The translations under genes and the position numbers were made by a program. A stretch of 18,280 nt of DNA from a virus (Duplodnaviria; Heunggongvirae; Uroviricota; Caudoviricetes). The notes below the pieces were generated by a model. That model did no database searches, was not told the DNA's origin, and saw nothing but the letters and a program-made list of their open reading frames with translations. Every line of letters begins with the position of its first letter. The stretch's first letter is position 1. Location of the stretch: IMG/VR virus record IMGVR_UViG_3300010261_000182; one strand, 5' to 3'. Shown piece by piece: positions 1 through 15,691 of this stretch.

Positions 1-348
1 TTACGAATTACTGCGGCGCTGTTGCTTTTCCGCATGTACGCGTTTCACAATCTTATAAATCCATTGCAGCGTCAGATTATATTTCTTCGCTAATTCGGCG
101 TAGTTGCGCCCATCGCACTCGCTATAGATTTGGTAGTCACGCTCCGATGCTCGTCCGGAGATCCCCTTAGGGAAATAAATGCTTTGTCCGCCCCAGTTAC
201 GCATCATTCGGTCGGCAATGGCAAAGCCCACATTTTCTGCCGATGAACTGTCGAGATTGATGCTTTCAATCAGAACTTGCGATGCATGAAAAGCCAAGTC
301 GTTAATGATCTCCGGTGTCCGGGCCATCTCTTTTGATTTTCGTATCAT
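1..348 (-). CDS. Mor/C-family transcriptional activator (Mu-like middle/late gene activator)
   Basis: 115-aa ORF with TAA stop at 1-3 and GGAG 7 nt upstream of the ATG. The central GGQSIYFPKG and the C-terminal helix-turn-helix-like segment YAELAKKYNLTLQWIYKIVKR resemble the Mor/C activator family. Family assignment is from memory, not searched. Confidence 0.7.
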   Translation of the reverse strand: MIRKSKEMARTPEIINDLAFHASQVLIESINLDSSSAENVGFAIADRMMRNWGGQSIYFPKGISGRASERDYQIYSECDGRNYAELAKKYNLTLQWIYKIVKRVHAEKQQRRSNS

Positions 349-569
349 TTTTCATCTCCATATATCTTGCATCCTGAATAAGACCCGATGCGTGTAAAAC
401 CACGGATATACGCTAAGCAGTTGTCATTACTGCTACTCAATACATTCAACAAACAAATAAACAATTAACAAAAATATAAATTTTTAATATTAATGAACGC
501 CATAAATTCATGAAATAGATATATTGTTTGCGTTATGTTTCTTGTCAACAGGTGTATCATTTTACACGA

Positions 570-589
570 TACTGTATACACATACAGTA
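570..589. promoter_or_regulatory. Candidate LexA (SOS) operator
   Basis: TACTGTATACACATACAGTA is a perfect 8-bp-arm palindrome that fits CTGT-N8-ACAG with TA flanks. It differs from the idealized TACTGTATATATATACAGTA only at two central positions. It lies between the divergent activator and lysis genes. Confidence 0.6.
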
Positions 590-885
590 TTATTTTTACT
601 TGTAGTGTAAAAAGATCGTTTCCCTCACAGTCGCTGACTTTCTTAAACAAACTTTAAAAATCAAATAACTATCGAATATTCCTACGATCCACCATCATCT
701 TTCCCCTGCATAATGATGCACTTGTTCGCCAGGTCACCTTTTGCTCTTTTATTGACGGGTGGATTTATTAGCGGGCATGTTCATTTATAGAGAATCTATT
801 TTTTAAACTTATTTATTAAAGCTTTTTTCATTCTTCACTGGCGGGTTCTGACGACACTAAACGCTCATTTATCAGGAGATATCGT

Positions 886-1173
886 ATGAAAAAAATCACA
901 TTTCCCCGGCTTTCCGGCTGGCTGGTCGCTTCCGTCGCGCTGTTTGTCGTGATCGGCTGGACCTCTTCCGCACAGATCCCGGTCGTCATTTATAAACTAA
1001 GCCTGGTTTCGCTTTCCGCGGTGCTGGGATACTGGCTCGATCGCAGTTTGTTCCCCTGGGCACGGCCTGACTCTTTTTGCCCCTGGAAGGAACCGCGTTG
1101 CTGCGCGGCGGCAATGATTCGCCGGGCTATCATCGTTGCTGCCGTCTGCCTTTCCGTCGCGTTAGGGCTATAG
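886..1173 (+). CDS. Small membrane protein, possible holin
   Basis: 95-aa ORF with AGGAG 8 nt upstream of the ATG. Three hydrophobic segments (WLVASVALFVVIGW, LSLVSLSAVLGYWL, AIIVAAVCLSVALGL). It sits immediately upstream of the lytic transglycosylase gene. It lacks the charged C-terminal tail typical of holins, so the call is positional. Confidence 0.4.
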   Translation: MKKITFPRLSGWLVASVALFVVIGWTSSAQIPVVIYKLSLVSLSAVLGYWLDRSLFPWARPDSFCPWKEPRCCAAAMIRRAIIVAAVCLSVALGL

Positions 1174-1175
1174 TG

Positions 1176-1781
1176 ATGTGGCTGAAATATATCGCGTCTA
1201 TGATTATTTTCGTTCTTTTCCCACTCAACGCCTCTGAACCGCCGAGAGCCTCTCTGGCATGGCGAAACGAACTAATTCGTACCGCTCGAGAAGTCTGGGG
1301 ACTGAATGCCCCAGTGGCCGACTTTGCCGGGCAATTACACCAGGAGTCCGCCTGGCAGCCAATGGTACGTTCCCCCGTTGGCGCACAAGGTATGGCGCAA
1401 TTCATGCCTGCTACAGCGACATGGGTAAGCCAGTTGTATCCGCAGTTGCGTGAAAACAAACCGTATAACCCAACCTGGGCGATTCGCGCGCTGGTGCAAT
1501 ATGACCAGCATTTGTGGAAAAACATCTCTGCGAAAAATGATTGTCAGCGTATGGCGTTTACCCTAAGCGCCTATAACGGCGGTCAGGGATGGGTTAATCG
1601 GGATAAAAAACTGGCCGCATCCAAAGGGTTAGATGCCACCATCTGGTTTGGTCATGTTGAGCACGTCAACGCCGGGCGTAGCGCCGCAAACTGGCGAGAA
1701 AATCGTCACTATCCGAAGATGATCCTCTATCAACATGCCGCCCGCTACCTACTCTGGGGGCAGGCAAGCTGTCTTCATTAA
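1176..1781 (+). CDS. Lytic transglycosylase (SLT domain) endolysin with signal-peptide-like N-terminus
   Basis: Family-1 lytic transglycosylase motifs are present: LHQESAWQP (catalytic Glu-Ser), GMAQFMPATA and AYNGG. The N-terminus MWLKYIASMIIFVLFPLNA/SEPP has an n-h-c signal-peptide layout. The start is ATG 1176 or GTG 1173; the track ORF from 1077 is a TTG-initiated extension overlapping the upstream gene. Confidence 0.75.
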   Translation: MWLKYIASMIIFVLFPLNASEPPRASLAWRNELIRTAREVWGLNAPVADFAGQLHQESAWQPMVRSPVGAQGMAQFMPATATWVSQLYPQLRENKPYNPTWAIRALVQYDQHLWKNISAKNDCQRMAFTLSAYNGGQGWVNRDKKLAASKGLDATIWFGHVEHVNAGRSAANWRENRHYPKMILYQHAARYLLWGQASCLH

Positions 1782-1793
1782 TCAGAGGGGCCG

Positions 1794-2108
1794 ATGAAAC
1801 TCAGTATCGATTTTTGGGAAGTGATCTCCCTTATGCTTTCCTTCGTTGGATTAATGTTTGCTGCCGGAAAATTGCTGTTAGCGCAAATTGAAAAAAGACT
1901 TAATGAGCGTTTTGAATCTCTGGAAAACGCGCGCCGGGAATCAGAAACAAGTTGGTCGAAACTGGAAAGAGAGTTTCTTGAATTTCGTGCCGAGCTTCCG
2001 CTGCATTATGTCCGCAGAGAAGATTATCTTCGTGGGCAAGCAGTATTAGAAGCAAAGCTGGATGCCTTATATAGCAAAATCGAGCTATTACAACGTGGCA
2101 GTTATTAA
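1794..2108 (+). CDS. Lysis-associated membrane protein (Rz/i-spanin-like or holin-like)
   Basis: 104-aa ORF with GAGGGG SD. One N-terminal transmembrane segment (VISLMLSFVGLMFAAGKLLL) is followed by a charged, helical, coiled-coil-like region. It is the last gene of the lysis cassette before a terminator. No embedded lipoprotein (o-spanin) ORF was recognised. Confidence 0.35.
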   Translation: MKLSIDFWEVISLMLSFVGLMFAAGKLLLAQIEKRLNERFESLENARRESETSWSKLEREFLEFRAELPLHYVRREDYLRGQAVLEAKLDALYSKIELLQRGSY

Positions 2109-2114
2109 ATACAT

Positions 2115-2146
2115 CCCCACCTTTACGTAAGTGTGGGGGTTTTTTA
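2115..2146 (+). terminator. Rho-independent terminator after the lysis cassette
   Basis: Stem CCCCAC (2115-2120) pairs with GTGGGG (2133-2138). The loop contains the palindrome TTACGTAA. A T-run follows at 2140-2146. Confidence 0.7.
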
Positions 2147-2254
2147 TAGCCATTCAATTTTTTCTCTAAATCACATTAAAAGATTCTTCACCTTCACTGC
2201 TTCAGAATATATCTCAACGATAACGAAGTGAGCGGTAATTAAGGTACAGCCTAT

Positions 2255-2710
2255 ATGGAAATTTTATCTGTAATGAATTGTGTCGTGACAAGATTACGTG
2301 AGCACAACCCCGAAATGGACGTATTTATTTCATCTACGGATGCCCAGAAATATATTCCACAGACACAACAAGTTGCGGTGATTGTTAATTATAGCGGTTC
2401 TGTCTTTACCACGCCCGAAAGCAGTGATGCCATCGTGCAACAGCAAATACTTCGCTTAACCGCCACCGTTATTGTTGGCAAAAATTGTGACGCGTTAAAC
2501 GCACTTGATCACATACGCAGCGCATTGGGTGGCCTTCAGCTTCCTGATTGCGATCGTCTGCTTTGGCTTGAAAAAGAAATTAATACAGGTGAGAGCGGCG
2601 GTTTCTGCCGCTACATCCTAGAAATGGCGACCAGCTCGCTGTTTATCGCGAAACGGGAAAGCACGGACCTTACCCTGCTTACGGAAGTTAATTACGAGGA
2701 AACTGAATGA
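2255..2710 (+). CDS. Conserved Mu-like structural protein (gp37-like; tail completion/terminator candidate)
   Basis: 151-aa ORF, first gene after the terminator, directly upstream of the sheath gene and coupled to the next ORF by an ATGA overlap. The function is inferred from position in Mu-type late clusters and is weakly supported. Confidence 0.4.
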   Translation: MEILSVMNCVVTRLREHNPEMDVFISSTDAQKYIPQTQQVAVIVNYSGSVFTTPESSDAIVQQQILRLTATVIVGKNCDALNALDHIRSALGGLQLPDCDRLLWLEKEINTGESGGFCRYILEMATSSLFIAKRESTDLTLLTEVNYEETE

Positions 2711-2904
2711 AATACATCTACAACGGCCCGGCAAGCGGCGTCACCCTTGCCGACGGACAAGAAATCTTATTGTGGCCGAACAGTGAAATTGATCTGCCAG
2801 AAGACAACGAGTGGGTCATGACCATGATTGCCCGCAATCATCTGACTCCTGTCATCACTCAGGAAGAACAAAATAACGGAGAGGAAATTGTACATGGCAG
2901 CTAA
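2707..2904 (+). CDS. Small Mu gp38-like protein of unknown function
   Basis: 65-aa ORF coupled by ATGA overlap to the upstream gene and overlapping the sheath start. The call is positional. Confidence 0.35.
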   Translation: MKYIYNGPASGVTLADGQEILLWPNSEIDLPEDNEWVMTMIARNHLTPVITQEEQNNGEEIVHGS

Positions 2905-4318
2905 TTATCTGCACGGTGTAGAAACCATTGAAATTGAAACCGGCCCGCGTCCGGTTAAAGCGGTAAAATCCGCCGTCATCGCTTTAATCGGTACGGCCCC
3001 CTGTGGTCCGGTAAATAAACCAACATTATGCCTTTCTGAAAGCGATGCTGCGCAGTTTGGTTCGACTCAGACTAACTTTACGATCCCACAGGCACTGAAG
3101 GCGATTTATGACCACGGTGCCGGTACGGTGGTGGTGATTAACGTGCTGGATCCGGCAAAACATGGCTCCAACATCAGCAATGAGAGTATCACTTTTGATG
3201 CTAACAACCAGGCGAAACTCACTCACCGCAATGTGCGTAACGTGGTTCTAAAGCCCTCTTCATCAAATTCATCAACCTATAACACCGCAGCATTTAGCGT
3301 AGATGAACAAACAGGCATAATTACCCGTACAGGAGCCGACATTCCTCCTGGTGCGAAAGTTTGCGCCTATTATTCCTGGTGCGACCCTACAAAGGTCACC
3401 GCAGCCGATATTATCGGTGCCGTTAATACCGCAGGCGATCGCACGGGGATGAAACTGCTACAGGACACCTATAACCTGTATGGTTTCTACGCCAAAATCC
3501 TGCTTGCTCCCGTGTTCTGTACGCAAAAATCAGTAACTACAGAGCTGATTGCACAAGCGGAAAAACTTGGTGCGATTACCTACATTGATGCCCCGATTGG
3601 GACGACATTCCAGCAGGTATTGGCAGGACGCGGTTCGCAAGGGGCTATCAACTTCAACACCAGCTCTGATCGTGCGCGTTTATGTTACCCACACGTCAAA
3701 GTTTACGATGGCATCACTAACCAAGAAGTTCTCGAACCGCTCTCTTCGCGCGCTGCCGGGCTACGTGCCAAAGTAGACCTCGAAAAAGGTTTCTGGTGGA
3801 GCAACTCAAACCAAGAAATTCAGGGTATTACCGGTATTGAACGTTCGCTTTCCGCAATGATTGATGATCCACAAAGCGAAGTGAATCAGCTAAACGAAAA
3901 CGGCATTACCACTATTTTCAATAGTTACGGCTCTGGTCTGCGCTTGTGGGGCAACCGCACTGCAGCGTGGCCTACCGTGACCCATATGCGTAACTTTGAA
4001 AACGTCCGCCGGACAGGCGATGTAATTAATGAGTCAATCCGTTATTTCAGTCAGCAGTATATTGATATGCCGATTAATCAGGCGCTGATTGATGCCCTGA
4101 CCGAATCGGTAAATACCTGGGGCCGTAAGCTGATTGCCGACGGCGCACTGCTTGGCTTTGAATGCTGGTACGATCCGGCGCGAAATTCACCGACTGAACT
4201 CAGCGCCGGGCATTTATTGCTTAGCTATAAATTCACCCCGCCGCCGCCGCTGGAACGTCTGACGTTTGAAACTGAAATTACTTCTGAATATTTAGTCTCT
4301 CTGGAGAGCAATAGCTAA
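2894..4318 (+). CDS. Contractile tail sheath protein
   Basis: About 474 aa from ATG 2894, with GGAGAGG about 9 nt upstream; the track start at 2888 is TTG. Size and N-terminus (MAANYLHGVETIEIETGPRP) are typical of Mu gpL / P2 FI-class sheath proteins. It is followed by the tube gene with a TAATG overlap. Confidence 0.8.
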   Translation: MAANYLHGVETIEIETGPRPVKAVKSAVIALIGTAPCGPVNKPTLCLSESDAAQFGSTQTNFTIPQALKAIYDHGAGTVVVINVLDPAKHGSNISNESITFDANNQAKLTHRNVRNVVLKPSSSNSSTYNTAAFSVDEQTGIITRTGADIPPGAKVCAYYSWCDPTKVTAADIIGAVNTAGDRTGMKLLQDTYNLYGFYAKILLAPVFCTQKSVTTELIAQAEKLGAITYIDAPIGTTFQQVLAGRGSQGAINFNTSSDRARLCYPHVKVYDGITNQEVLEPLSSRAAGLRAKVDLEKGFWWSNSNQEIQGITGIERSLSAMIDDPQSEVNQLNENGITTIFNSYGSGLRLWGNRTAAWPTVTHMRNFENVRRTGDVINESIRYFSQQYIDMPINQALIDALTESVNTWGRKLIADGALLGFECWYDPARNSPTELSAGHLLLSYKFTPPPPLERLTFETEITSEYLVSLESNS

Positions 4319-4842
4319 TGGCTGGAAAAATTCAAATTAACCGTATTACCAACGCCAATATTTATCTCGATGGTAATAACCTTTTAGGTCGTGCAACCGA
4401 AATTAAATTGCCGGATGTCAGTTTAATTATGCAGGAGCATAAAGCACTGGGCATGGTCGGCAAAATCGAACTCCCGGCAGGTTTCGATAAACTGGAAGGG
4501 GAAATTAAATGGAACTCCTTTTATCAGGACGTCATGCGTAAAACGGCAAACCCGTGGCAGGCGGTAGCATTACAGTGCCGCTCCAGTATTGATTGCTATA
4601 ACTCCCAGGGGAAAGCGAATCAATTAGCGTTAGTGACACATTTAACCGTGATGTTTAAAAAGAATCCACTGGGCACATTTAAACAGAATGAAAACCCGGA
4701 ATTCAGCAGCGCCTTTGGCTGTACTTATATTAAACAAGTGGTCGATGGTGAAACGCTGCTTGAACTTGATTATATGGCGAATATTTTTCGGGTTAACGGC
4801 GTGGATCAATTAAGTACCTATCGCAATAACATCGGTGGCTAA
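4318..4842 (+). CDS. Tail tube protein
   Basis: 174-aa ORF immediately after the sheath gene with TAATG coupling. Size and position match Mu gpM / P2 FII-class tube proteins. Confidence 0.8.
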   Translation: MAGKIQINRITNANIYLDGNNLLGRATEIKLPDVSLIMQEHKALGMVGKIELPAGFDKLEGEIKWNSFYQDVMRKTANPWQAVALQCRSSIDCYNSQGKANQLALVTHLTVMFKKNPLGTFKQNENPEFSSAFGCTYIKQVVDGETLLELDYMANIFRVNGVDQLSTYRNNIGG

Positions 4843-4846
4843 TTTA

Positions 4847-4866: not shown

Positions 4867-4892
4867 CTTCGCAAAATAAATAAGGATACAAA

Positions 4893-5210
4893 ATGAAAGA
4901 GCATTATATCTTACAGTTCCCGTTTACTTCAGCGGCGGGAGACGTAATTAACACTCTGCAATTACGTCGCCTGAAAGTAAAAGATATGCGCAACGCGCGC
5001 CGGATCAGCGAAAAACCTGAAGAGTGGGATGAACCGCTAATGGCAGCAATGACCGGACTGGTGCCAGAAGATTTAGCTGAAATGGATTTGCTGGATTACC
5101 AGGCATTGCAGAAACGATTTCAATCCATGCTTAGCGTGGCTACAGAATCCGCCACTGTTATGGCAAGCGATGGCGTTACTGGCGAGATGGTTTCGCTTTC
5201 CGCCCAGTGA
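4893..5210 (+). CDS. Tail assembly chaperone (lambda G / P2 E analogue)
   Basis: 105-aa acidic ORF lying between the tube and tape-measure genes, the conserved position of the frameshift chaperone. AAGGA SD. An overlapping +1-frame ORF (5053-5298) continues past its stop. Confidence 0.6.
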   Translation: MKEHYILQFPFTSAAGDVINTLQLRRLKVKDMRNARRISEKPEEWDEPLMAAMTGLVPEDLAEMDLLDYQALQKRFQSMLSVATESATVMASDGVTGEMVSLSAQ

Positions 5211-5399
5211 GATAGACGCCCTTACCGTCGATGACTTTAGCAACTGGCTGGATGAAGCCAGCGCCCAAATAAAAATCGAATATGACTCGCAGACCTGATG
5301 TCTGCGAGTTTCCCAAGCCCGTCAGGTTTATTTCTTCCCTGCCCCTTTTTTTAGAAAAATAACCAGCGGGCCATTATCAATATTTAAAGAGAAACAATT

Positions 5400-7775
5400 T
5401 TGGCCAACGATATTATTACCCAGCTTCAGGCGCGTAATGAGACGTTGACGCAGGCAATAGCCCGTTACGGCTCACTCAACGCCAGAACATTGTTAACTCT
5501 CTCTACTCAGCAGGCGACAGTTATCAAACTAACGCAGCAGCTTGCCGATTCCGCTCTCCGCCTGGAGGAAAATAGCCGCAGCCGCGCTAATCTGATGGAG
5601 AAAACCCAAACATTTGCCGGGCAATTTAGCAAAGTATTCAATGTTGAAGCCCCCGACTGGAAGTTGCCGTATGAGTTTCAGGACAACATGGTCAATATGG
5701 CGACCAAAGGTGGGATGAATGCTACAACCCGCGAGACGCTCAGCCTTAATCTGCGCGACTGGAGCATGGATTTTAACCAGCAGCAGACCACCTTACAGAA
5801 CGCAGCCCAAACGCTGATCGAAGGCAATTTGTCGTCGATACAGGATCTCAACCGTTATATGCCGGAGATCGCCAAAGCTGCCACCGCCACGCGCGAAAGT
5901 GCTGAAACATGGGCGAATGCCGCGCTCGCAACCCATGATCGACTGAATATTGCCCCGGAAAATTTCCACGCCGCGCAAAACATGATGTACGGCATTAGCA
6001 AAAGCGGTGGGCCTGCCATTGCTGAACAAACGCAGTGGATAGAGAAATTTGCAGGTAAAACCGGCGCTCAGGGTCTGGAAGGTATGGCTGAACTGACCGC
6101 CACCATGCAGATCGCCATGAAAAACGGGGCCAGCGCCAGTGCGGCGGCGGAGAATTTCGACCACTTTCTGCAAACCACCTTTTCGAAAAAAACCGATAGC
6201 TGGTTCGCCAGCCAGGGCGTCGATCTGCAAGGCTCTCTGCTTGAACATCAGCAAAACGGTATGGGTGTTAGCGAAGCCATGACTCATATCGTACAAATGC
6301 AGCTTGAGAAGATGAATCCGGCGATCCTCGACACCTTCAAACGCACTATGCAGATTGAAGATTTATCTGCTCGCAGCAATGCGCTGCAATCGATGGTAAC
6401 GCAATTTAATCTGGGCGAAATGTTCGGCGATGCGCAAACGGTGGAATTCCTGGCACCTATGCTGGCGAATATGGAGGAATATCGCCAGTTAAAAGCCTCT
6501 GCCATGCAAGCCACCAGCAAGAATCTGATTAACGCTGACTTTTCTGCGCAAATGGCCTCGCCCATTGAACAGACTAAAGCGTTACAGCTGGCATTAAATG
6601 ATTTATGGCTCAGCATTGGTTTGCAGCTTATGCCGGCGATTGGCGAGCTGGCACAAAGCCTTACGCCGGTTATTCGCCAGTTCAGCGCCTGGCTACGCGA
6701 ACATCCGGCGCTGGTGCAAAACATTGCGAAAATCGTCGGGGCGGTTTGGCTGTTTAACGGCGCGCTGAATGTTTTAAAGCTGGGCGCGAACCTCATCACC
6801 TCGCCGTTTATTCGTCTGGTCGATATCTTCCTGAAAGTCAAGGCAAGTCTGGCGCTCACAGGCGGGGCAAATAAGATGCTATCAGCGGTTAAGTCATTGG
6901 GTGGCGGCGCAAAATGGCTAATGCAACTGCTTGGTCGTGGCCTGATTGGCGCACTGAAACAGGTAGGTCAGACCGTCTTCTGGTTGGGTAGGGTTTTATT
7001 GATGAATCCCATTGGTCTGGTCATCACTGCGATTGCGGGCGCTGCTTATCTGATTTGTCGCAACTGGGAGCCTATCTCCAGGTTCTTTTCGACCATCTGG
7101 CAACGTATCACCACAGCCTTTGACGGCGGCATTGCAGGAATTTGTCGGTTGATTCTCGACTGGTCACCGCTGGAGTTGTTCTATAGCGCCTTTTCCAGTG
7201 TGATGAATTGGTTTGGTGTCGAGATGCCTGCAAGTTTTAGCGAGTTCGGCAGCAATCTTCTGGGCAGTCTGGTTGACGGCATAATGAATGCCTTCCCCGC
7301 TCTGAAAGGCATTATTGATCAGGTAAAAAACGCCATCCCAGACTGGCTAAAAACCACGATGGGTATTAGTACAGAAGGATCGGCTACAGCTATTACAAGC
7401 ACGACTAATACCGCATCCGTCTCCCCCGCGACCGTTGTTCCAGGCGTTGCCGGTGCGATTTTAACGCCGCCGGTGGGCAAACAACTCGCGCCATCCGGCA
7501 AAACGGCTACGCCGTCATCGGCGCCAGCGGCAAAAAATACAGCCGCCAAACCCGTATCTGCCTCTTTACCTGGTAAATCCGTAACCAAACCGGCGACGCT
7601 ACCCTCCCGTTCCTCAGGAAAAGTCCAGGTAAATTTTTCGCCACAGATTACCGTGCAGGGAAACGGACAAAACACCACTAAAGACATTCAGAACGTGTTG
7701 ACGATGAGTAAACGCGAACTGGAAAGAATGATTAACGACGTAATGGCGCAACAACAGCGCCGGGGGTATGCCTGA
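5400..7775 (+). CDS. Tail tape measure protein
   Basis: 791-aa ORF with a helical N-terminal region, internal hydrophobic segments and a Ser/Thr/Pro/Ala-rich low-complexity C-terminal region. It sits between the chaperone and baseplate genes. The apparent start is TTG 5400 with AAAGAG upstream, so the start is uncertain. Confidence 0.8.
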   Translation: MANDIITQLQARNETLTQAIARYGSLNARTLLTLSTQQATVIKLTQQLADSALRLEENSRSRANLMEKTQTFAGQFSKVFNVEAPDWKLPYEFQDNMVNMATKGGMNATTRETLSLNLRDWSMDFNQQQTTLQNAAQTLIEGNLSSIQDLNRYMPEIAKAATATRESAETWANAALATHDRLNIAPENFHAAQNMMYGISKSGGPAIAEQTQWIEKFAGKTGAQGLEGMAELTATMQIAMKNGASASAAAENFDHFLQTTFSKKTDSWFASQGVDLQGSLLEHQQNGMGVSEAMTHIVQMQLEKMNPAILDTFKRTMQIEDLSARSNALQSMVTQFNLGEMFGDAQTVEFLAPMLANMEEYRQLKASAMQATSKNLINADFSAQMASPIEQTKALQLALNDLWLSIGLQLMPAIGELAQSLTPVIRQFSAWLREHPALVQNIAKIVGAVWLFNGALNVLKLGANLITSPFIRLVDIFLKVKASLALTGGANKMLSAVKSLGGGAKWLMQLLGRGLIGALKQVGQTVFWLGRVLLMNPIGLVITAIAGAAYLICRNWEPISRFFSTIWQRITTAFDGGIAGICRLILDWSPLELFYSAFSSVMNWFGVEMPASFSEFGSNLLGSLVDGIMNAFPALKGIIDQVKNAIPDWLKTTMGISTEGSATAITSTTNTASVSPATVVPGVAGAILTPPVGKQLAPSGKTATPSSAPAAKNTAAKPVSASLPGKSVTKPATLPSRSSGKVQVNFSPQITVQGNGQNTTKDIQNVLTMSKRELERMINDVMAQQQRRGYA

Positions 7776-8728
7776 TGTATGCCGTTTTAGGAGAGATTGA
7801 ATTTAAGGTTGTCACATTCTGGGACGGCTTTAAAAGCACAATGGGCGTGGATTACGCCACACATGCCCGTATAGAAGGCAAACCCGGCGTGCAGTTTATT
7901 GGCGATAAGCTGGATATGCTGGCGCTGGAATTTTCCCTGCACAGCCAGTTTTGCCAGCCCACAACAGAGCTGAACCGACTGCGTGAAGCCATGCTTGCTC
8001 ACAAGGCGATGGCACTGGTATTTGGCAATGGCGATTATCGCGGCTGGTTTGTGATTACGGAGCTAACCGCCACCCACCAGCACACCGATCCCTGGGGCAA
8101 TGTGATTGCCCAAAACGGAACGATGTCGCTCCAGGAGTACACCGGCGATCCTAAAAATCCACTTTTACCTCCGGCGATTACCACCCAGGAGCCCAACATC
8201 GAGGAAAAGGCGAGCGATTTTCCCGACAAGGTGGAGTCCTGGTTTGATCAGATATTAAACGCCATTGAAGAAGGTATGCGTAAGGCCAAAGAGATGCTGG
8301 ATGAACTGACACAATCCATTGAAGATATTAAAAAAACGGTGGCAAAAGTGAAAGCAATGATTAAAGAGGCCAAAGCGTTAAAAGAAAAGTGTGAAAAGAT
8401 AATTACGTCATTGAAAAAGACAATCGACGCCATCGAAACCCTGTTTAAACAGCCAATGGATCTGCAAACGCTGGCAGGCCTACCAAAAGCGTTGTCGGCG
8501 CAGATTAAAGCTTTACTGGGTAACATGCCAGGTATCCGGGACTGCGCCAATGACGCCAGTACGCTGGTTGACCATGCTCAGGCGCTTTTCGACGACATTA
8601 CCAGCGACATCGCCGAAGCGACGTTCGATAAAGCCACGTCGTTGGTTGAGCAGGCACGTACAACGGTACAACAAACCACTCCCGCAGTGAGCCAGCTTGC
8701 TGCCGTAACCATTACCAGGAGCTGGTAA
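7775..8728 (+). CDS. Tail protein of the P2 gpU / Mu N (DNA circularization protein) family
   Basis: 317-aa ORF coupled by TGATG overlap to the tape-measure gene. The N-terminal ~130 aa (MYAVLGEIEFKV...DYRGWFVITEL) follows the gpU/N pattern as remembered. The C-terminal part is a K/E-rich helical extension. Confidence 0.55.
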   Translation: MYAVLGEIEFKVVTFWDGFKSTMGVDYATHARIEGKPGVQFIGDKLDMLALEFSLHSQFCQPTTELNRLREAMLAHKAMALVFGNGDYRGWFVITELTATHQHTDPWGNVIAQNGTMSLQEYTGDPKNPLLPPAITTQEPNIEEKASDFPDKVESWFDQILNAIEEGMRKAKEMLDELTQSIEDIKKTVAKVKAMIKEAKALKEKCEKIITSLKKTIDAIETLFKQPMDLQTLAGLPKALSAQIKALLGNMPGIRDCANDASTLVDHAQALFDDITSDIAEATFDKATSLVEQARTTVQQTTPAVSQLAAVTITRSW

Positions 8729-8937
8729 TGCGATACCTTGAACATATCACCACCGATGGCGAACGCTGGGATAACCTGGCATGGCATTACTACGGTGATG
8801 CGCTGGCTTATGAACGCATAATCGCCGCCAATCCACATGTAGCCATTTACCCGGTACTGCCTTCCGGTATTCAGCTCATTATTCCGGTCATTTCCGTTAA
8901 TAAAACCTTATCGGAGATCCCACCATGGCTGAGATAA
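8728..8937 (+). CDS. Tail protein X-like (LysM-like) small protein
   Basis: 69-aa ORF with TAATG coupling. GERWDNLAWHYYGD...IIAANPHVA...VLPSGIQLIIP matches the remembered P2 gpX pattern (GDTLD..YYG...ANP...LP.G..V.LP). Confidence 0.6.
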   Translation: MRYLEHITTDGERWDNLAWHYYGDALAYERIIAANPHVAIYPVLPSGIQLIIPVISVNKTLSEIPPWLR

Positions 8938-9965
8938 GCGTAACTGGTGGCGTCTTTGCCACACTCACGCCCATTTTTACCCTCTGGTATGGGCATAAAG
9001 ATATCACTTATGACATCACACCCTATGTCACCAGCATCAGTTACCACGACAGCATCAAAAACGAGTCGGATACCATCGCAATTACACTGGATGACACAGA
9101 TGGACGCTGGATAAAAGAGTGGTATCCCGGCAAAGGCGATACGCTGGCGCTGCATATGGGTTATCAGGGAGAGAAGCTGCTCGATTGTGGTCAGTATATT
9201 ATTGATAAAATTGATATTTCAGCGCCACCTTCCACGGTAAATATTGATGGCATCGCCACTTCCGTCAATCAGGCGCTGCGCACCCGTAACAGCCAGGGCT
9301 TTGAAGAAACGACGCTTTCGGCGATCGCCAGCCGTATTGCCCAAACGCACGGTCTGAAACTGGTGGGCAAAATCGAGTCGCTCACCATCGACCGGGTAAC
9401 GCAGTATGGTGAAACCGATGTCGGATTTCTCAAACGTATGGCCAGTGAATATGGTTATGCCGTAAAAGTGACGACAAAAGAGCTGATTTTTTCACATTTA
9501 CCCACGCTGCGCTGCCTGGCACCGGTAAAAAAGATCGAGCGCAAAGAGGTTTCTCATTTTACCTTCAAAGACACCATTAACCGGATCTACAAGAACGCCA
9601 CCGTACAGCATCAAAATAGTAAGAAAAAAGAACTGGTTATCTACACTCACGACAGCCAGCAAAAACCATCTGTCCGTGGAGTCGGCACTAGTGCCGACAC
9701 GCTAAAACTGAACAGTCGGGCGACGGACGTTGGCGCAGCACAGGCAAAGGCTAACGCTGCACTCGACAGCCACAACGAATATCAGCAAACCGGAACGCTC
9801 ACAATGATGGGCTGCCCGGAACTGACGGCGGGCAATAAAATCGAGCTAACCGATTTTGGCGTGCTTTCCGGTCAATGGCTAATTGATAAATCTACTCACA
9901 GTTTTGTGCGCAGCGGCTATACCACTGAAATCGACGTGTCGCGCGGGCCAGCGACCAGCCAGTAA
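8925..9965 (+). CDS. Baseplate hub protein, P2 gpD / Mu P-like (late control D family)
   Basis: 346-aa ORF. The segment ETDVGFLKRMASEYGYAVKVTTKELIFSHL resembles the conserved gpD-family core. It sits upstream of the spike gene. Confidence 0.65.
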   Translation: MAEISVTGGVFATLTPIFTLWYGHKDITYDITPYVTSISYHDSIKNESDTIAITLDDTDGRWIKEWYPGKGDTLALHMGYQGEKLLDCGQYIIDKIDISAPPSTVNIDGIATSVNQALRTRNSQGFEETTLSAIASRIAQTHGLKLVGKIESLTIDRVTQYGETDVGFLKRMASEYGYAVKVTTKELIFSHLPTLRCLAPVKKIERKEVSHFTFKDTINRIYKNATVQHQNSKKKELVIYTHDSQQKPSVRGVGTSADTLKLNSRATDVGAAQAKANAALDSHNEYQQTGTLTMMGCPELTAGNKIELTDFGVLSGQWLIDKSTHSFVRSGYTTEIDVSRGPATSQ

Positions 9966-9974
9966 GGAGGAAAT

Positions 9975-10634
9975 ATGAAAGGAGTAACCCGGCAAACGGG
10001 GATTATCAGCGATATTGACGAAACCAGCGTTCGGGTGCGAGTCACGCTCCCAGAGTGTGACAATCTGAAGAGCAACTGGCTTGCGGTACTTCAACGCAAT
10101 TCCCAGGACAATAAAGACTACTGGCTACCGGATATGGGCGAGCAAGTGGAAGTTCTGCTGGACAATAACGGTGAAGATGGCGTGGTGCTGGGCGCAGTTT
10201 ATTCTACGGTTGACACCGCGCCTGTGGCCTCGCGCGATAAACGTTACGTCCAGTTTTCTGATGGCGCAGCGTTTGAATATGACCGCAGCACGCACCAGCT
10301 GACGATTAACGGCGGTATCGAGAAAATCGTGATTGAGGTTATCGACCGTACCAGCCTGACATCGCCCAACGTTGAGATTAAAGCCCAACAGGTCATCGTG
10401 ACTTCCGATACTGTCGATGTTAAAGCGGCAGCAGTGACGGTAGATGCGCCCATGAGCACCTTTACTGGCAACGTCACGGTAATGAAAAAACTCACCTGGC
10501 TTGGCGGGATGGCAGGAAGTGGAGGCATCGGTAACGCCGCCACAATAACCGGCAATGTCAACGTGATCGGCAACGTTCAGGCCAGCGGCGCATTGCAGGA
10601 CAGTGGTGGCAACTCCAACCACCACTCACACTGA
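9975..10634 (+). CDS. Baseplate central spike, gpV-like
   Basis: 219-aa ORF with strong AAGGAGG SD. The N-terminal OB-like segment (NWLAVLQRN...YWLPDMGEQVEVLLDNNGEDGVVLGAVYS) matches the gpV pattern. The C-terminus is Gly/Asn/Val-rich and repetitive (GNVNVIGNVQASG) and ends in NHHSH. Confidence 0.7.
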   Translation: MKGVTRQTGIISDIDETSVRVRVTLPECDNLKSNWLAVLQRNSQDNKDYWLPDMGEQVEVLLDNNGEDGVVLGAVYSTVDTAPVASRDKRYVQFSDGAAFEYDRSTHQLTINGGIEKIVIEVIDRTSLTSPNVEIKAQQVIVTSDTVDVKAAAVTVDAPMSTFTGNVTVMKKLTWLGGMAGSGGIGNAATITGNVNVIGNVQASGALQDSGGNSNHHSH

Positions 10635-10639
10635 CGTTT

Positions 10640-10669
10640 AACCCGCCTGATGGCGGGTTTTCTCTTTTT
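10640..10669 (+). terminator. Rho-independent terminator or attenuator inside the baseplate region
   Basis: AACCCGCC (10640-10647), loop TGAT, GGCGGGTT (10652-10659), followed by TTCTCTTTTT. It starts 6 nt after the spike stop codon. Confidence 0.6.
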
Positions 10670-10732
10670 AATCAATCAGTTTTCTAAATCGCTTTAATAT
10701 CACCACAGCCCGTTCAGGGCGAAAATACCCTC

Positions 10733-11092
10733 ATGAACACAAAAACACGACCCTCAACGCTGCACTGGCAACCGGCCTTGCTGCGGCCTGAAGAATACGT
10801 CTGCGGACTGGATGATATTCACCAGGCAATACACATCATTCTGCGTACACCGCGCGGCAGTGATCCCCACAGACCGCTGTTTGGCAGCAACTTGTGGCAC
10901 TACATCGATTACCCCATCGAGCGGGCTATCCCGCATGTGGTACGGGAGTCGGTGGAAGCCATCCGCCAGTGGGAACCGCGCTGTCGGTTGCTGAAGGTGA
11001 CACCAGTAATCGACGGCGAACATCTGACGTTACGTGTGCAATGGCGCGCCGCTGACGGCGTTATCAACTCAACGGAGGTGTTATGGCGATAG
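10733..11092 (+). CDS. Baseplate protein, gpW / T4 gp25-like
   Basis: 119-aa ORF. IHQAIHIILRTPRGSDPHRPLFGSNLWHYIDYP matches the GPW/gp25 family pattern as remembered. Confidence 0.7.
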   Translation: MNTKTRPSTLHWQPALLRPEEYVCGLDDIHQAIHIILRTPRGSDPHRPLFGSNLWHYIDYPIERAIPHVVRESVEAIRQWEPRCRLLKVTPVIDGEHLTLRVQWRAADGVINSTEVLWR

Positions 11093-12198
11093 CCGAACCC
11101 AATTTTATTGACCGCGATCCTGCGCAAATTACCAGTGAGATGATTGCGCAATACGAAGATGCCAGTGGTAAAAAACTCTATCCGGCACAGGCTGAACGGT
11201 TGCTCATCGACCTGTTTGCCTATCGTGAAAACCTTGTACGCATCGCCATTCAGGAAGCGGCGAAACAGAACCTGGTCGCGTATTCCCGCGCGCCAATGCT
11301 GGATTATTTAGGGGAGTTGGTGGGCGTTCACCGTTTGCCTGCGCAGCCGGCAAAAACGACGTTGCAGTTTTCGGTCGTCAGCGCGTATACCAGCAATATC
11401 CTGATTCCCCAGGGGACGCGGGCCAGTGCCTCTGATAGCGTGATGTTCGCCACCGATGAAGATGTTCTGCTTCCGGCCAGGAGTTTGCATATCGCCGTTC
11501 CTGCCACCAGCCTCGCAGCAGGTGAACAGGGTAACGGCTGGCAGCCTGCACAAATTAGCGCACTGGTCGACAGGATTGGTCATTATGACATCAACGTAAC
11601 CAACCTGACTGCGTCAACGAGCGGCTGCGGTGAAGAGAGCGATGACGCATTGCGCCAGCGTATCCAACTGGCACCAGAAAGCTTTAGTAATGCGGGCAGC
11701 TATGGTGCCTACCGCTTTCATACGCTTTCTGTTAGCCAGTCGATTATTGACGTTGCAGTACTGGGGCCGGACGAGGGATTGCCAGAAGGCTGCGTGGAGA
11801 TCTACCCGCTAACCCTGAATGGTCTACCCGGCACGGAGTTGCTGGCGCAGATTGAACAAGAAGTCAGCAAGGAGAAAAAACGACCGCTGACCGACAAAGT
11901 GAGTGCGAAATGCGCTCTTCGAGTGCCGTATGAGATCCGTGCGCAGCTAACGCTGTTTACCACCGCCGATCAGGAGACAACGCTGGCTGCGGCGCGTAAA
12001 GCGATTAGCCTCTGGACGCAACAGCGGCAGAAACATCTGGGGCAGGACATTGTGCCAAACCAGATAATCAAAGTGTTACAGGTCGATGGCGTCTATGACG
12101 TTGCGCTGAATATGCCTACAAAACGTATTTTGCAGGCGCATGAGTGGGCGGAATGCACCGCAATAGACGTCACGATTGCCGGAGTCAGCGATGGATAA
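11083..12198 (+). CDS. Baseplate wedge protein, gpJ-like
   Basis: 371-aa ORF with GGAGG SD, overlapping the end of the gpW-like gene. Position and size match baseplate J family proteins. Confidence 0.7.
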   Translation: MAIAEPNFIDRDPAQITSEMIAQYEDASGKKLYPAQAERLLIDLFAYRENLVRIAIQEAAKQNLVAYSRAPMLDYLGELVGVHRLPAQPAKTTLQFSVVSAYTSNILIPQGTRASASDSVMFATDEDVLLPARSLHIAVPATSLAAGEQGNGWQPAQISALVDRIGHYDINVTNLTASTSGCGEESDDALRQRIQLAPESFSNAGSYGAYRFHTLSVSQSIIDVAVLGPDEGLPEGCVEIYPLTLNGLPGTELLAQIEQEVSKEKKRPLTDKVSAKCALRVPYEIRAQLTLFTTADQETTLAAARKAISLWTQQRQKHLGQDIVPNQIIKVLQVDGVYDVALNMPTKRILQAHEWAECTAIDVTIAGVSDG

Positions 12199-12907
12199 AT
12201 TGCTGCCACCGCCGCCGCTTGCCAGCGATGAGCGTTTTTCGATTCTGGCAAACATCGCCGCCGAGCGTTTTGCCCAACTCGATCTGACGGCGTTGATGGT
12301 TTATCTGGTCGACCTGGTTGATGCTTCGGCATTACCAGCCCTTGCAGAACAATTTCACGTTCAGGGGCTGGAAGGTTGGTTATTTACCACCGATGAGCGG
12401 GAGAAACGCGAGTTAATTAAACAAGCCATTGAACTGCATAAATATAAAGGAACAATTTGGGCGGTGCGGCGGGTGCTGGAAATACTCTCCTTACCCGGAA
12501 CTATTTCAGAATGGTTTGAATATGGGGGAAGGGCTTACTTTTTTAAGGTTGATATTACACTAGAGGAAAAAGGATTAAATGAAGATGAATTCAATGCACT
12601 TATCACATTAATTCATGAATATAAAAATGTCCGATCAAAGCTGGAAAGCATTGTTATTTGGCTTATTAATCGAAGCCCAATACCAGTTATTGGCAGTGCC
12701 ATGCAAGGAGGGGAAGTCATTACAGTATTGCCTCCTGTTGCAGAAAGCCTCAGCCAGTCATCTGGAATATTTTTAGCGACAGGTTATTGTGTGGAGGAAT
12801 ATATTCAACTACTACCTTATCAACCCGTTCGACTAACACAATCCCAACCGATGAAGGTCGGCACAGGATACTGGAGCACCGAAATTATGTCTGTATATCC
12901 GGAGTAA
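12191..12907 (+). CDS. Baseplate/tail protein, P2 gpI-like
   Basis: About 238 aa from ATG 12191, with GGAG at 12181-12184; the track start at 12176 is TTG. The N-terminus [22 protein letters not shown] is typical of the gpI family. The C-terminal half is markedly AT-rich. Confidence 0.6.
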
Positions 12908-12909
12908 TA

Positions 12910-14550
12910 ATGGCAAGTGAATTTTTTACAATATTAACTGCTGCAGGCAAAGCCAAAATTGCCTCAGCACTGGCCGAGCAAAAACAGATCCGTCTGCAAA
13001 CTATGGTAGTTGGCGACGGTAATGGTAAATATATCGAACCGACAGAAAGTCAGACCAAAGTAGTCCATGAGGTCTGGCGTGGTCAGCTCAATACATTAAA
13101 AATTGCGCCAGATAATCCGGCCTGGGTTATCGCAGAAGCGATTATTCCCGAACAAGTCGGAGGCTGGTATGTACGCGAAGTTGGGTTACTGGATACCGAC
13201 GGCACGATGGTCGCTATTGGTAAATTCCCGGAAACCTATAAGCCACGATTACCTGCGGGGGCCAGTAAGCAAATCGTTATACGCGCGGTCATGGAAGTCA
13301 CCAATGCAGATGCGGTGACGCTTTTGATCGACCCTTCAGTCGTTGTGGCAACCAGGGAATATGTCGATGACGCGTTGAAAACACATCAGCAATCACGAAA
13401 TCATCCTGATGCGACGCTGACACAAAAAGGTTTTACGCAGCTGAGTAATGCGACTAATAGCGATGATGAAACCAAAGCGGCCACGCCAAAAGCGGTAAAA
13501 ACGGCATATGACCTGGCAAATAGCAAAGCTGCCACCAGTCATAATCATGCCTGGAATCAGATTACTGGTATCCCTGATGGTACACTGACGCAGAAAGGAG
13601 TCGTTAAGCTTAACAATACAACAAATAGCACCAGTACGACGGAAGCTGCAACACCAAGTGCGGTTAAGGCAGCGATGGATAAGGCTATTGCTGCGGCACC
13701 GTCCAGCCATACCCATGCCTGGGGGCAAATAACAGGTATCCCCGACGGTACGCTGACGCAAAAAGGGGTCGTGAAACTTAATAATGCGACCAACAGCACC
13801 AGTACGACGGAAGCTGCAACGCCGAACGCTGTTAAGGCAGCGATGGATAAGGCTATTGCTGCGGAAAGCTGTCCTGTAGGGATGCCTATTCCTTGGCCAT
13901 CTGATTCTATACCTTCAGGCTACGCTCTGATGACAGGTCAGACATTTAATAAAGCCTCCTATCCCAAACTGGCAATTGCATATCCATCTGGTGTTATTCC
14001 TGACATGCGCGGATGGATAATTAAAGGAAAACCATCCAGTGGGCGAGCTATATTATCTACTGAACTGGATGGAATTAAATCACATAACCATACGGGCAGT
14101 ATTTCGAGTACTGATTTAGGGACAAAGGCAACATCATCTTTTGATTTTGGACACAAAACGACATCTGCCTCTGATCTTGGTTCTAAGACAACATCGTCGT
14201 TCAATCACGGAAGTAAATCGTCGACCAGCACAGGGGGCCATTCACATCAAATAACATGTAAAGGTGATGCTGATTACGGTGGCAATGCACTAACCGCTGA
14301 TTCTATAGGTGACTCTCGTTATGACTACGTTAATACCGATACTGTAGGTGATCACTCTCATACTACAGCCATTGGTACCCATGCACATACTATCGCATTG
14401 GGTAGCCATACACATGAACTTTCAATTGGCACCCATTCGCATTCAATTGCCCTTGGTTCCCATAATCACTCCCTAACCATTAATAATACCGGCAACACCG
14501 AAAACACCGTCAAAAATATCGCATTCAACTATATTGTGAGGCTAGCATGA
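12910..14550 (+). CDS. Tail fiber protein
   Basis: 546 aa from ATG 12910, with GGAG at 12901-12904; the upstream in-frame extension in the track is rejected. It has a conserved gpH/S-type N-terminus ([24 protein letters not shown]...MVVGDGNG), internal 56-aa tandem repeats, and a C-terminal region of short periodic repeats with five HxH motifs. Confidence 0.85.
13408..13866 (+). repeat. In-frame tandem repeat, period 168 bp, about 2.7 copies, inside the tail fiber gene
   Basis: Protein units [12 protein letters not shown]... / [40 protein letters not shown] / [40 protein letters not shown]. Copies 2 and 3 are near-identical at nucleotide level. The antisense ORF 13557-13799 shows the same peptide at both ends. 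Confidence 0.85.
14349..14469 (+). repeat. 27-bp (9-aa) periodic repeat encoding five HxH motifs in the tail fiber tip
   Basis: [42 protein letters not shown]; the repeat is also visible at nucleotide level (ggtacccatgcacatactatcgcattg / ggtagccatacacatgaactttcaatt ...). Confidence 0.8.
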
Positions 14551-15254
14551 ATACTTTTACCTTTTCCGATGAAGCTCAAATACTAACTGTATATAATTTT
14601 TCACAAGACTCCCAAGAATATATCGGTGAGTCTGATGCATACATTGCACCTAATACAGGCTTGCCAAATTATTGCACATTAATTTCACCTCCCGAAAAGG
14701 TTCCTGGTTTTACTCCAGTGTGGGAGAATGAAACATGGAGATTTATTGAAGATCATCGAGGCCAAACTGTTTATAACAAAGTTGATGGTAGCCAGCTTAT
14801 TATTCAAGAATTGGGCCAATTACCTGAAAATGTAACAGTCATTTCCCCGACAGGTTCTTTTGAACGTTGGGATGGTGAAAAATGGCAACCATCTATAACC
14901 GATGCTAAAGAGGCGAAATACTCTGCAATCAAAAATCAACGCGATGCCATCACAACCGATTACATCATCATCAACAACCATCACTTCCACAGTGATACAA
15001 ATAGCCGTATCCAGCAGCTCTCACTCACAAAAATGGGAGCGGAGAAAAAAATTCCGCCAGGGTTAATGTGGAAAACTAAAAATAATGGTCTGATCGAGTT
15101 AACCAACGAAATCGCCGCCCAGTTTGAATCGGTCACCATGGATCACGATATGCGCTTGTTCGCAAACGCCCAGCACCATATCGCGGCGGTGGAAGCACTG
15201 GACGATATTCAGGCGGTGCTCGACTACGATTATTCAACAGGCTGGCAACCATGA
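14547..15254 (+). CDS. Putative tail fiber assembly chaperone
   Basis: 235-aa ORF coupled by ATGA overlap to the tail fiber gene, with GAGG SD. The call is positional. The 5' half is AT-rich like the fiber tip, consistent with a co-transferred fiber/chaperone unit. Confidence 0.5.
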
Positions 15255-15691
15255 GTAAAACCACTGTCTGGCTCGCTTGTTATAAGGGCCGAACAGAGCA
15301 CCGTGGTATTGCCCGACTGGCTGACTGGCTTACCCGTAAAATCACACGCGGCAGTTATTCCCACTGTGAATTAGCCGTTAAGCATGGTGAAAAGAGTTAC
15401 CTTTGTTACTCCGCATCACTGCGCGATCGCGGTGTACGCGGAAAAATAATGCCATTGCCAGCGGATAAGTGGGATATGCTGCCGCTCCAGGCCAGCCTTC
15501 AGGATGTGGAAACTTTTTTCCGTAAACATGATGGCAAAAAATATGACTGGCGCGGAGCATTAGGAATTATTATCGGTAATAAAGAACAGCGCGATCGCCT
15601 GTTTTGCAGTGAATTTTGTGCTGAATTTCTGCAACTGAAGGAAAGCTGGCGCTATTCTCCAAACCACTTGTACGCTTTAGTCAGCAGTTAG
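15251..15691 (+). CDS. Hypothetical protein, possible permuted papain-like (NlpC/P60-LRAT/YiiX-like) enzyme
   Basis: 146-aa ORF coupled by ATGA overlap to the fiber chaperone gene. YSHCELAV (His-containing) lies upstream of LFCSEFCAEF (Cys-Ser-Glu-Phe), which is reminiscent of permuted NlpC/P60 catalytic motifs. This is a weak, unverified resemblance. Confidence 0.35.
   Translation: MSKTTVWLACYKGRTEHRGIARLADWLTRKITRGSYSHCELAVKHGEKSYLCYSASLRDRGVRGKIMPLPADKWDMLPLQASLQDVETFFRKHDGKKYDWRGALGIIIGNKEQRDRLFCSEFCAEFLQLKESWRYSPNHLYALVSS

Follow-up and report, generated by a model that had tools for sequence, protein, structure and literature searches.

The IMG/VR virus record IMGVR_UViG_3300010261_000182 was analysed over its full length of 18,280 nucleotides (the window), of which positions 1–15691 form an island of 20 genes lying flush between the Escherichia coli core genes lysC and yjbD. 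The initial annotation of this stretch described it as a headless Mu-type tail module fused to a lysis cassette and proposed it as a candidate R-type tailocin locus, with a decayed prophage as the alternative. The gene order and content on which that proposal was based are borne out, with agreement on the genes between open reading frame (ORF) prediction, Pfam, PHROGs and the annotation that RefSeq gives for an identical strain; the E. coli chromosomes A37, GF130 and Q5 all show 100% identity to the window. The genes, control elements and distribution of the island point to a probable tailocin descended from a BcepMu-like phage.

At the left edge of the island, on the minus strand, lies the gene for a Mor/C-family late transcriptional activator of 115 aa (1–348; PF08765, E = 7e-38; phrog_532; 49% identity to BcepMu gp01). 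The other 19 genes are on the plus strand and start with a lysis cassette consisting of a 95 aa holin (886–1173; PF13272 Holin_2-3, E = 2e-27; phrog_1528; homologue of BcepMu gp21), a 201 aa SLT endolysin, that is, a lytic transglycosylase (1176–1781; PF01464, E = 2e-14; 52–55% identity to BcepMu gp22), and a gp25-like membrane protein of 104 aa (1794–2108; 46% identity to BcepMu gp25, E = 2e-35). The tail genes follow directly, beginning with Gp37, the tail terminator or cap (2255–2710, 151 aa; PF09646; match to PDB 2GJV, E = 1e-54), a gp38-like small protein of 65 aa that always accompanies gp37 (2707–2904; 46% identity to BcepMu gp38; phrog_895), the sheath (2894–4318; PF04984/PF17482) and the tube (4318–4842; PF04985, E = 4e-56). 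Next come a gpE-type tail assembly chaperone (4893–5210; PF10109) with an extension in the +1 frame that is open over 5077–5298, a tape measure of 791 aa (5400–7775; PF10145), a gpU-like protein (7775–8728), gpX (8728–8937) and the gpD hub (8925–9965), the last three being covered jointly by PF06995, PF05489 and PF05954, and the gpV spike (9975–10634; PF04717). The baseplate wedge is encoded by gpW (10733–11092), gpJ (11083–12198) and gpI (12191–12907), with matches to PF04965, PF04865 and PF09684, and the island ends with a tail fibre that has a gpH-type N-terminus, fibre repeats and a collar domain (12910–14550; PF12571, PF03406, PF07484), a fibre assembly chaperone (14547–15254; PF14301/PF02413) and an accessory ORF of 146 aa with no Pfam match (15251–15691). 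The contractile-tail set is complete from the terminator to the fibre chaperone, and all of the BcepMu genes gp37–gp51, plus a fibre, are represented. The fibre chaperone and the 146 aa ORF gave PHROG matches to phrog_1807/105; the latter has homologues in Pasteurella phages, where they adjoin genes for fibre assembly, and in Moraxella phages. For this ORF the PHROG label ‘enoyl-CoA hydratase-like’ was set aside, given the lack of a Pfam match and the nature of its homologues, which are small ORFs lying next to fibre-assembly genes in those phages whose neighbouring genes are annotated.

The initial annotation had noted that the head segment of Mu-like phages is missing from the stretch, and this absence holds well beyond it. 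In GF130 the 15 kb to the left carry the mal operon, psiE, yjbE-H, pgi and lysC, and the 15 kb to the right carry yjbD, rluF, the sorbose phosphotransferase system operon (sor genes), pepE, yjbB and metH; in the RefSeq annotation of this identical strain there is no capsid, terminase, portal, integrase or transposase gene in 15 kb on either side. Likewise, BcepMu TerS, TerL, portal, F, G, protease, major capsid protein, gp36, transposase and B gave no tblastn match in the window plus 15 kb each side. The lysC stop codon lies 54 bp to the left of window position 1 and of the Mor stop codon, and in K-12 the site is empty, with 252 bp from lysC to yjbD. No direct or inverted repeats of at least 18 nt were found flanking the island and no att sites were seen; a scan for transfer RNA genes found none, and hence no integration site linked to one, and Rfam at gathering thresholds returned no RNA family in the window. 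The flanks, which the initial annotation had proposed to inspect for head or packaging genes and att sites, therefore consist of core genes only.

Comparison with BcepMu, gene by gene, defines what was lost. The island lacks three blocks: the early genes that separate Mor (gp01) from the holin (gp21), comprising GemA, the B-like gene, transposase and repressor; Rz/Rz1 (gp23/24); and gp26–gp36, which include both terminase subunits, portal, F, G, protease/scaffold, major capsid protein, gp35 and the head–tail adaptor. The single Mor/C activator, the holin, the SLT endolysin, the gp25-like protein and everything from Gp37 to the fibre and its chaperone are retained. The retained genes Mor, holin, SLT, gp25 and gp37–gpI are colinear with those of BcepMu and of the E. 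coli phage PhiKM, with 68% identity in the tube and 71–74% in the sheath (71% to BcepMu gp39; 74% to PhiKM and to Klebsiella phage KP12, which are Bcepmuvirus-like). The divergent orientation of Mor relative to the late genes and an alternative-frame extension of the tail chaperone are also shared with both phages, and a late-promoter element with PhiKM. The two phages differ from the island in having no LexA box, whereas the island has no transposase, B, repressor, GemA, Rz/Rz1 or head and packaging genes; the transposase/B, repressor, terminase, portal and capsid expected of a functional Bcepmuvirus prophage are thus all absent. By these comparisons the island appears to be a domesticated, headless derivative of a BcepMu-like (Bcepmuvirus) transposable phage. 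The term ‘Mu-type’ in the initial annotation has to be replaced by ‘BcepMu-type’, which denotes a Mu-like phage whose tail proteins are P2-like. Similarly, Mor was correctly described as divergent, but this is native in BcepMu rather than derived, and what is new in the island is its direct adjacency to the lysis genes.

The right-hand limit of the large deletion was examined through Gp37. An AlphaFold (AF2) model was built from a shallow alignment (pLDDT 74), the homologue search having given only close relatives, including the Escherichia albertii copies. A strong match is PDB 2GJV, a Salmonella protein with six chains in the crystal (55% identity over the structural alignment), which we take to be STM4215 of Salmonella typhimurium. 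In Foldseek searches the model matched 2GJV (TM-score 0.77–0.85), the phage Mu terminator 9khy, T5 p142 and lambda gpU, and also the monocin cap, the pyocin R2 collar 6u5f and the diffocin collar; these fold matches identify Gp37 as the tail terminator. The PHROG label ‘portal protein’ was rejected for a 151 aa product with a terminator fold. The boundary of the deletion falls where the tail pathway begins: upstream of Gp37 the genes for head and neck are gone, and from Gp37 onward all genes are kept. In the tail chaperone gene, the alternative-frame peptide containing LLARWFRFPPSEIDAL has been kept between E. coli and PhiKM, whereas the zero frame that it overlaps varies, and it is also conserved in carotovoricin; PF06528 (GpE) gave a weak match here (E = 0.002). 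The extension lies in the +1 frame (equivalently −2), unlike the E/E' extension of P2, which is in the −1 frame, and no XXXYYYZ slippery heptamer was found in the overlap of the frames.

The lysis cassette is reduced. The endolysin has an N-terminal hydrophobic signal or anchor segment, and its translation contains HQESAW, in which we take the Glu-Ser pair to be catalytic, as in SLT enzymes. The third gene (1794–2108) had been called ‘Rz-like’, a designation that has to be withdrawn: the product is the orthologue of BcepMu gp25, has 50% identity to a PhiKM membrane protein and shows no similarity to the BcepMu Rz, gp23. It has a single N-terminal transmembrane segment and a coiled coil but no cysteine. 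No ORF with a lipobox was found in 1176–2250, that is, in or after the SLT and gp25-like genes. As the gp25-like protein is not Rz and lacks cysteine, and no embedded lipoprotein ORF is present, the cassette has no recognisable spanin (Rz/Rz1).

The initial annotation placed a LexA (SOS) box between Mor and the holin gene, and this is confirmed. The sequence TACTGTATACACATACAGTA at 570–589 is the sole CTGT-N8-ACAG in the window (one observed against 0.22 expected by chance) and is near-consensus, matching 18 of 20 positions of the consensus. It adjoins an invariant flank, CATTTTACAC, at 558–567, and the two together make up one of the few conserved blocks of the Mor–holin spacer. The box is kept in all seven lysC-type loci scanned, with copies in Salmonella, two Superficieibacter species, Phytobacter and two further E. 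coli haplotypes, and is absent from the scanned relatives outside this group (Lelliottia, carotovoricin, Brenneria, PhiKM and BcepMu). On the plus strand a promoter-like sequence, TTTACA-16-TACAGT (561–588), overlaps the box, and on the minus strand TAAAAT abuts it. We infer that LexA controls Mor because no other conserved promoter-like element precedes Mor and because an activator cascade fits the layout.

The plus-strand genes fall into three units (holin–SLT–gp25-like; Gp37 to V; W to the 146 aa ORF), each preceded by an AT-rich element. The first unit ends in the intrinsic terminator that had been reported after the lysis genes, here placed at 2115–2146 (plus strand), whose hairpin and T-run are kept in five taxa despite differing stem sequences; the second ends in an intrinsic terminator after V (10640–10668, plus strand); and the third is bounded by a terminator-like hairpin at the right edge of the island (15709–15733, reported on the minus strand), which is also present in strains without the tail cluster. 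The AT-rich, late-promoter-like element, approximately TTTYCTAAA-N4-5-WTTAAWA, occurs in the window only at 639, 2161 and 10680 (0.005 expected by chance). The first copy, TTTCTTAAAC-AAAC-TTTAAAAATC (639–662, plus strand), is a regular-expression match in the Mor–holin spacer, a candidate Mor site and a consensus-like copy of the holin-promoter element of the family; the equivalent element upstream of the holin in PhiKM, carotovoricin, Lelliottia and Brenneria is CTTAAAC-N4-TTTAAAATC. The second, TTTCTCTAAATCACATTAAAA (2161–2181, plus strand), is upstream of the tail operon that starts with Gp37, and the third, TTTTCTAAATCGCTTTAATA (10680–10699, plus strand), is upstream of W, the same V–W position being occupied in PhiKM and carotovoricin. 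A variant AT-rich element, TTTTAAACTTATTTATTAAAGC, at 797–820 (plus strand), about 65 nt upstream of the holin start, is nearly invariant in five taxa and in register with the holin-promoter element of related phages, and is a candidate lysis promoter or activator site. Late-promoter-like elements are found at equivalent places in Salmonella and Phytobacter, and upstream of gp37 and W in carotovoricin. PhiKM has copies ahead of the holin gene, at the V–W junction and in the interval from G to the head-protease gene. As the element upstream of gp37 in the headless clusters aligns with the head-operon element of PhiKM (with an extra flanking match in Brenneria alni), the head deletion probably fused the head-operon late promoter to gp37. 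A late promoter joined in this way to the tail-terminator gene would explain how activator-dependent expression of the tail operon was retained.

The same headless, spanin-less layout with Mor and the LexA box is found beside lysC in Salmonella Infantis and LT2, Superficieibacter electus, a second Superficieibacter species, Phytobacter massiliensis and E. albertii, the E. albertii cluster having 91.3% nucleotide identity to the island over 12.7 kb. The comparison of synteny that the initial annotation had suggested therefore shows the tail-only layout to be kept at one site across strains and several genera. Full comparison was possible for 17 genes, all of which have full-length orthologues in E. 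albertii, Salmonella, Superficieibacter and Phytobacter, with ratios of nonsynonymous to synonymous divergence (dN/dS) of 0.02–0.27 at synonymous divergences (dS) of about 0.6 to over 2 across the compared taxa, and in the E. coli haplotypes LR-28 and PSJ-42 the cluster is intact with no pseudogene flags. The synonymous divergence of the island is about that of the flanking housekeeping genes: between E. coli and Salmonella dS is 0.6–1.8 for island genes, 0.71 for pgi and 1.18 for lysC, and between E. coli and E. albertii it is 0.14–0.55, 0.31 and 0.90, respectively. Since the deletions and the site are identical in all of these taxa, the divergence arose after the head had been lost, with purifying selection acting on the genes. 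Transcription of the sheath orthologue STM4213, with induction by indole, is reported for S. Typhimurium (PMC3405474). Two irregularities were seen in E. albertii. The dS of lysC is unusually high beside the values for pgi and the island genes (locus L001, 13597–14946, against locus L089), which hints at recombination at the edge of the lysC–yjbD hot spot. In strain CP045690 (L089, 12586–13140) the chaperone ORF is uncalled, yet it is called in another E. albertii strain (L090), so that in CP045690 it may be a strain-specific pseudogene.

The Salmonella LT2 genes STM4198–4219, labelled a ‘phage remnant’, are orthologous to the island at lysC, with the same deletions, LexA box and promoter elements and with protein identities of 55–96%. 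The Salmonella version differs in carrying an operon for O-antigen glucosylation, gtrABC, inserted precisely after the V terminator and ahead of the W promoter element (Infantis locus L002, 18227–21062; LT2 STM4204–4206), in having other fibre alleles and in having right-hand cargo without the slipin/nucleotidyltransferase pair described below. The gtrABC operon could be a moron protecting its carrier against its own particle.

The closest characterised relative of the island is carotovoricin (Ctv) of the plant pathogen Pectobacterium, a defective prophage that encodes a Mu-type tailocin under SOS control (PMC13566846) and whose four transcription units, from holin to fibres, occupy the interval from tolC_2 to ybiB (PMC13195805). 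Both are headless derivatives of enterobacterial BcepMu-like phages, with 75–76% identity in the sheath, the same order of holin, SLT, gp25-like, gp37, gp38, sheath, tube, chaperone, tape measure, U, X, D, V, W, J, I and fibre, late-promoter elements upstream of gp37 and W, and fixation at a single chromosomal site across a genus. They also have in common a variable fibre locus and SOS control (PMC13195805; PMC13566846), the latter suggested for the island by its LexA box. The Pectobacterium loci that we retrieved have the holin–SLT–...–gp37–sheath order and adjoin a TolC-family gene. The differences are that carotovoricin occupies the tolC_2–ybiB site rather than lysC–yjbD, that it has retained Rz and gp26 and lacks a neighbouring Mor gene and LexA box, whereas the island has both of these and neither spanin nor gp26, and that ein is present in about 47% of Ctv clusters (PMC13195805), whereas no invertase or inverted repeat is found here. 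In a tree of sheath plus tube (neighbour-joining without bootstrap, and so indicative only) the lysC group forms a single clade whose sister is a Lelliottia element with no head genes that has kept its transposase; carotovoricin forms a separate clade, sister to similar Lonsdalea elements, and headless Brenneria elements are nested among full prophages. The island thus lies neither at the Ctv site nor in the Ctv clade, and head loss in the lysC group was probably independent of that in carotovoricin, making this a case of parallel domestication rather than Ctv itself. Because the headless lysC, Ctv and Brenneria elements are separate on the tree, the head would have been lost several times in this phage family. 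Further BcepMu-like elements without a head were noted in Lelliottia (L007), Brenneria (L010 and L014), Lonsdalea (L041 and L047) and Chromobacterium (L070–L074); some of them keep transposase, B and Mor, and in the Chromobacterium elements Mor is directly upstream of gp37 with no adjacent lysis genes. This suggests repeated, stepwise genesis of tailocins in the BcepMu-like family, which is a good model of tailocin origin, head loss being apparently repeated and transposase-bearing intermediates being in existence.

The R-type pyocins of Pseudomonas aeruginosa, which are P2-derived, resemble the island in having, at a fixed site, a regulator and lysis genes together with a complete but headless contractile tail; the sheaths are homologous (E = 3e-45 to the pyocin R2 sheath 3j9q) and the collar/terminator fold is shared. 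Induction by DNA damage is counted as a further common feature, suggested for the island by its LexA box. For induced release the island has Mor, the LexA box, holin and SLT endolysin, a lysis set that is incomplete by phage standards in having no spanin. The pyocins come from another phage ancestor, use the regulators PrtR/PrtN and not LexA plus Mor, and keep Rz/Rz1-like genes.

In E. coli the island is carried by 201 of 5426 complete genomes (3.7%), 158 of which hold at least 80% of it; some copies are damaged and carry an ISEc53 insertion or have been cut down to 27% of the query. The ISL3-family ISEc53 transposase was seen inside the matched region in several human isolates of E. coli. Variation among the E. 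coli copies is concentrated in the fibre, which is the hypervariable part of the locus, and this is an indirect hint at strain-specific killing. Strain LR-28 is 97.9% identical up to 14157, has a swapped fibre tip over 14158–14439 and is then 96.6% identical, and strain PSJ-42 is 95.8% identical up to 12699, about 71% identical over 12700–14931 (the gpI C-terminus, fibre and chaperone) and 93.8% identical thereafter. A matching pattern of variation is known for the tail-fibre locus of carotovoricin (PMC13195805), and for Salmonella a PCR marker that is largely specific to Typhimurium derives from a fragment of the fibre gene STM4200 (PMC6201931). No inverted repeats marking an invertible fibre segment, and no invertase, were found in the window. 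The fibre gene also contains a 168 bp tandem duplication (13535–13864) with two copies that are 84% identical, which probably explains the two ‘places’ per genome in BLAST searches.

Taken together, these results make it likely that the island is an SOS-inducible R-type tailocin derived from a BcepMu-like phage and fixed at lysC–yjbD in a minority of E. coli. On this model DNA damage would lead to self-cleavage of LexA and so release from repression the promoter at its box, which is most likely that of Mor, and Mor would then activate the three late promoters. Tails would assemble on the baseplate and be capped by Gp37, and the holin and lytic transglycosylase would lyse the producer and release the particles. 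The fibres would bind a surface receptor of related strains, probably lipopolysaccharide, after which contraction of the sheath would push the tube and spike through the envelope and kill the target; recombination at the fibre end would shift the target range. Several points weigh against this interpretation. Particles, killing and SOS induction are predicted here from the genes, and no open-access paper was found that reports tail-like bacteriocin activity from the locus, though Salmonella LT2 carries the orthologue. The direction of the promoter at the LexA site is ambiguous, as conservation fits the plus-strand TTTACA-16-TACAGT and the minus-strand TAAAAT equally, and the AT-rich element is assigned to Mor by its position only. 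With no spanin, particle release may be inefficient or take a different route. Finally, carriage by only 201 of the 5426 genomes, with some copies bearing an insertion sequence (IS) or truncated, shows that the island is dispensable.

Low carriage, the copies damaged by ISEc53 or cut to 27% of the query, the loss of spanins and the E. albertii strain without a called chaperone ORF would all be expected of an inert, decaying BcepMu-like remnant from which the head and early genes were deleted by chance and which makes nothing useful. We nevertheless regard decay as very unlikely: all 17 fully comparable genes are full length in four taxa with low dN/dS (0.02–0.27) at a dS of about 0.6 to over 2, the shared deletions and site place that divergence after head loss, and the terminators, promoter-like elements, LexA box and chaperone alternative frame are conserved as well. 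The preference of the initial annotation for a tailocin over a decayed prophage is thus upheld, on genomic grounds. Selection by itself could also be met by a function other than a bacteriocin, with the island serving as an SOS module for autolysis or release (of colicins, DNA or vesicles) or as a source of tails for capsid-only satellites or other prophages. The LexA box beside the lysis genes, which it could drive directly through the plus-strand promoter-like site, and the unusual spanin-less cassette would suit such a function, and nothing in the sequence is proof of killing; but selection acts on all of the tail genes, including spike, baseplate and fibre, lysis alone does not need the full set from terminator to fibre, the fibre tip diversifies as in carotovoricin and other tailocins (PMC13195805), and the 15 kb to each side contain neither a head nor a satellite partner. 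This explanation is accordingly unlikely, although it deserves more weight than decay.

The remaining two alternatives concern the kind of element. The end of the window at 18280 is the only point in favour of the island being the tail half of a complete prophage with head and packaging genes just outside; this is refuted by the flanks of the identical strain, which are housekeeping genes for 15 kb on each side, and by lysC ending 54 bp before the Mor stop codon, with the same boundaries in other E. coli strains and in E. albertii. Hardly more credible is an extracellular contractile injection system (Afp/PVC-like), or a toxin-delivery device related to the type VI secretion system (T6SS), aimed at eukaryotic or bacterial targets. 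Contractile sheath, tube and baseplate are shared with such systems, and the sheath has weak similarity to Afp3 and Pvc2 (E about 3e-4), but Pfam found no AAA+ ATPase, toxin cargo or T6SS membrane-complex domain in any ORF, the nearest relatives are Bcepmuvirus phages (sheath 71–74%), and the island has, like phage tails and R-type tailocins, a tape measure, a fibre of the gpH type with its chaperone, and a holin/endolysin. The tailocin interpretation can also be extended: the element may have been domesticated as a tailocin before the Escherichia/Salmonella split, inherited largely vertically (its synonymous divergence being in step with that of the flanking housekeeping genes) and lost from most E. 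coli, with LexA directly controlling a single Mor, spanin-less release and, in Salmonella, self-immunity through gtrABC. We put this combination forward tentatively, as a possibility that is rather less than even. Such an ancient tailocin would be a natural weapon against other bacteria that has so far been overlooked in the most thoroughly studied enteric species, S. Typhimurium LT2 among them.

Routine annotation already covers the genes of the cluster, and systems of this kind are well known; most likely the lysC cluster is an uncharacterised R-type tailocin. In a search of the open-access literature no paper was found that treats it, or STM4198–4219, as a tailocin, and no characterised natural R-type tailocin of E. 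coli or Salmonella was found in the searchable open-access literature. A paper on an E. coli ST131 ‘tailocin’ was rejected as a match, as it concerns a different, complete P2-like prophage, and a 2026 survey of Salmonella T6SS set tailocin and phage loci aside without analysing them. Work in E. coli and Salmonella relies instead on engineered pyocins or engineered phages (PMC11762384; PMC10670071). A native, intact tailocin under SOS control that comes with several natural fibre haplotypes would offer a ready-made chassis for precision antibacterials and be a candidate factor in competition among gut strains, and its spanin-less cassette raises the question of how particles pass the outer membrane.

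Parts of the cluster are also matched, at 75–87% nucleotide identity, by short unannotated GenBank contigs of Escherichia phage ECO95 1-6-1 (OR845313 and OR845696) and by contigs of Salmonella phage S.Kent 1-2-1 (OR851066, OR850896, OR850955 and OR851449). These ‘phage’ contigs resemble the Salmonella version and may be host or tailocin-locus DNA in the phage preparations. To the right of the island, the minus strand of the window (15720–17644; also locus L085, 2554–5440) encodes an RlaP-type nucleotidyltransferase and a slipin/SPFH protein. This pair is separate cargo outside the tail cluster and occurs independently of it in 1632 of the 5426 complete E. coli genomes; in strain TW14425 the lysC–yjbD site holds zeta-toxin, nucleotidyltransferase and slipin genes as cargo. 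PADLOC gave no match for the neighbouring slipin, RlaP nucleotidyltransferase and zeta-toxin genes, and the slipin/nucleotidyltransferase pair, with its zeta-toxin companion in TW14425, could be an undescribed defence or toxin module.

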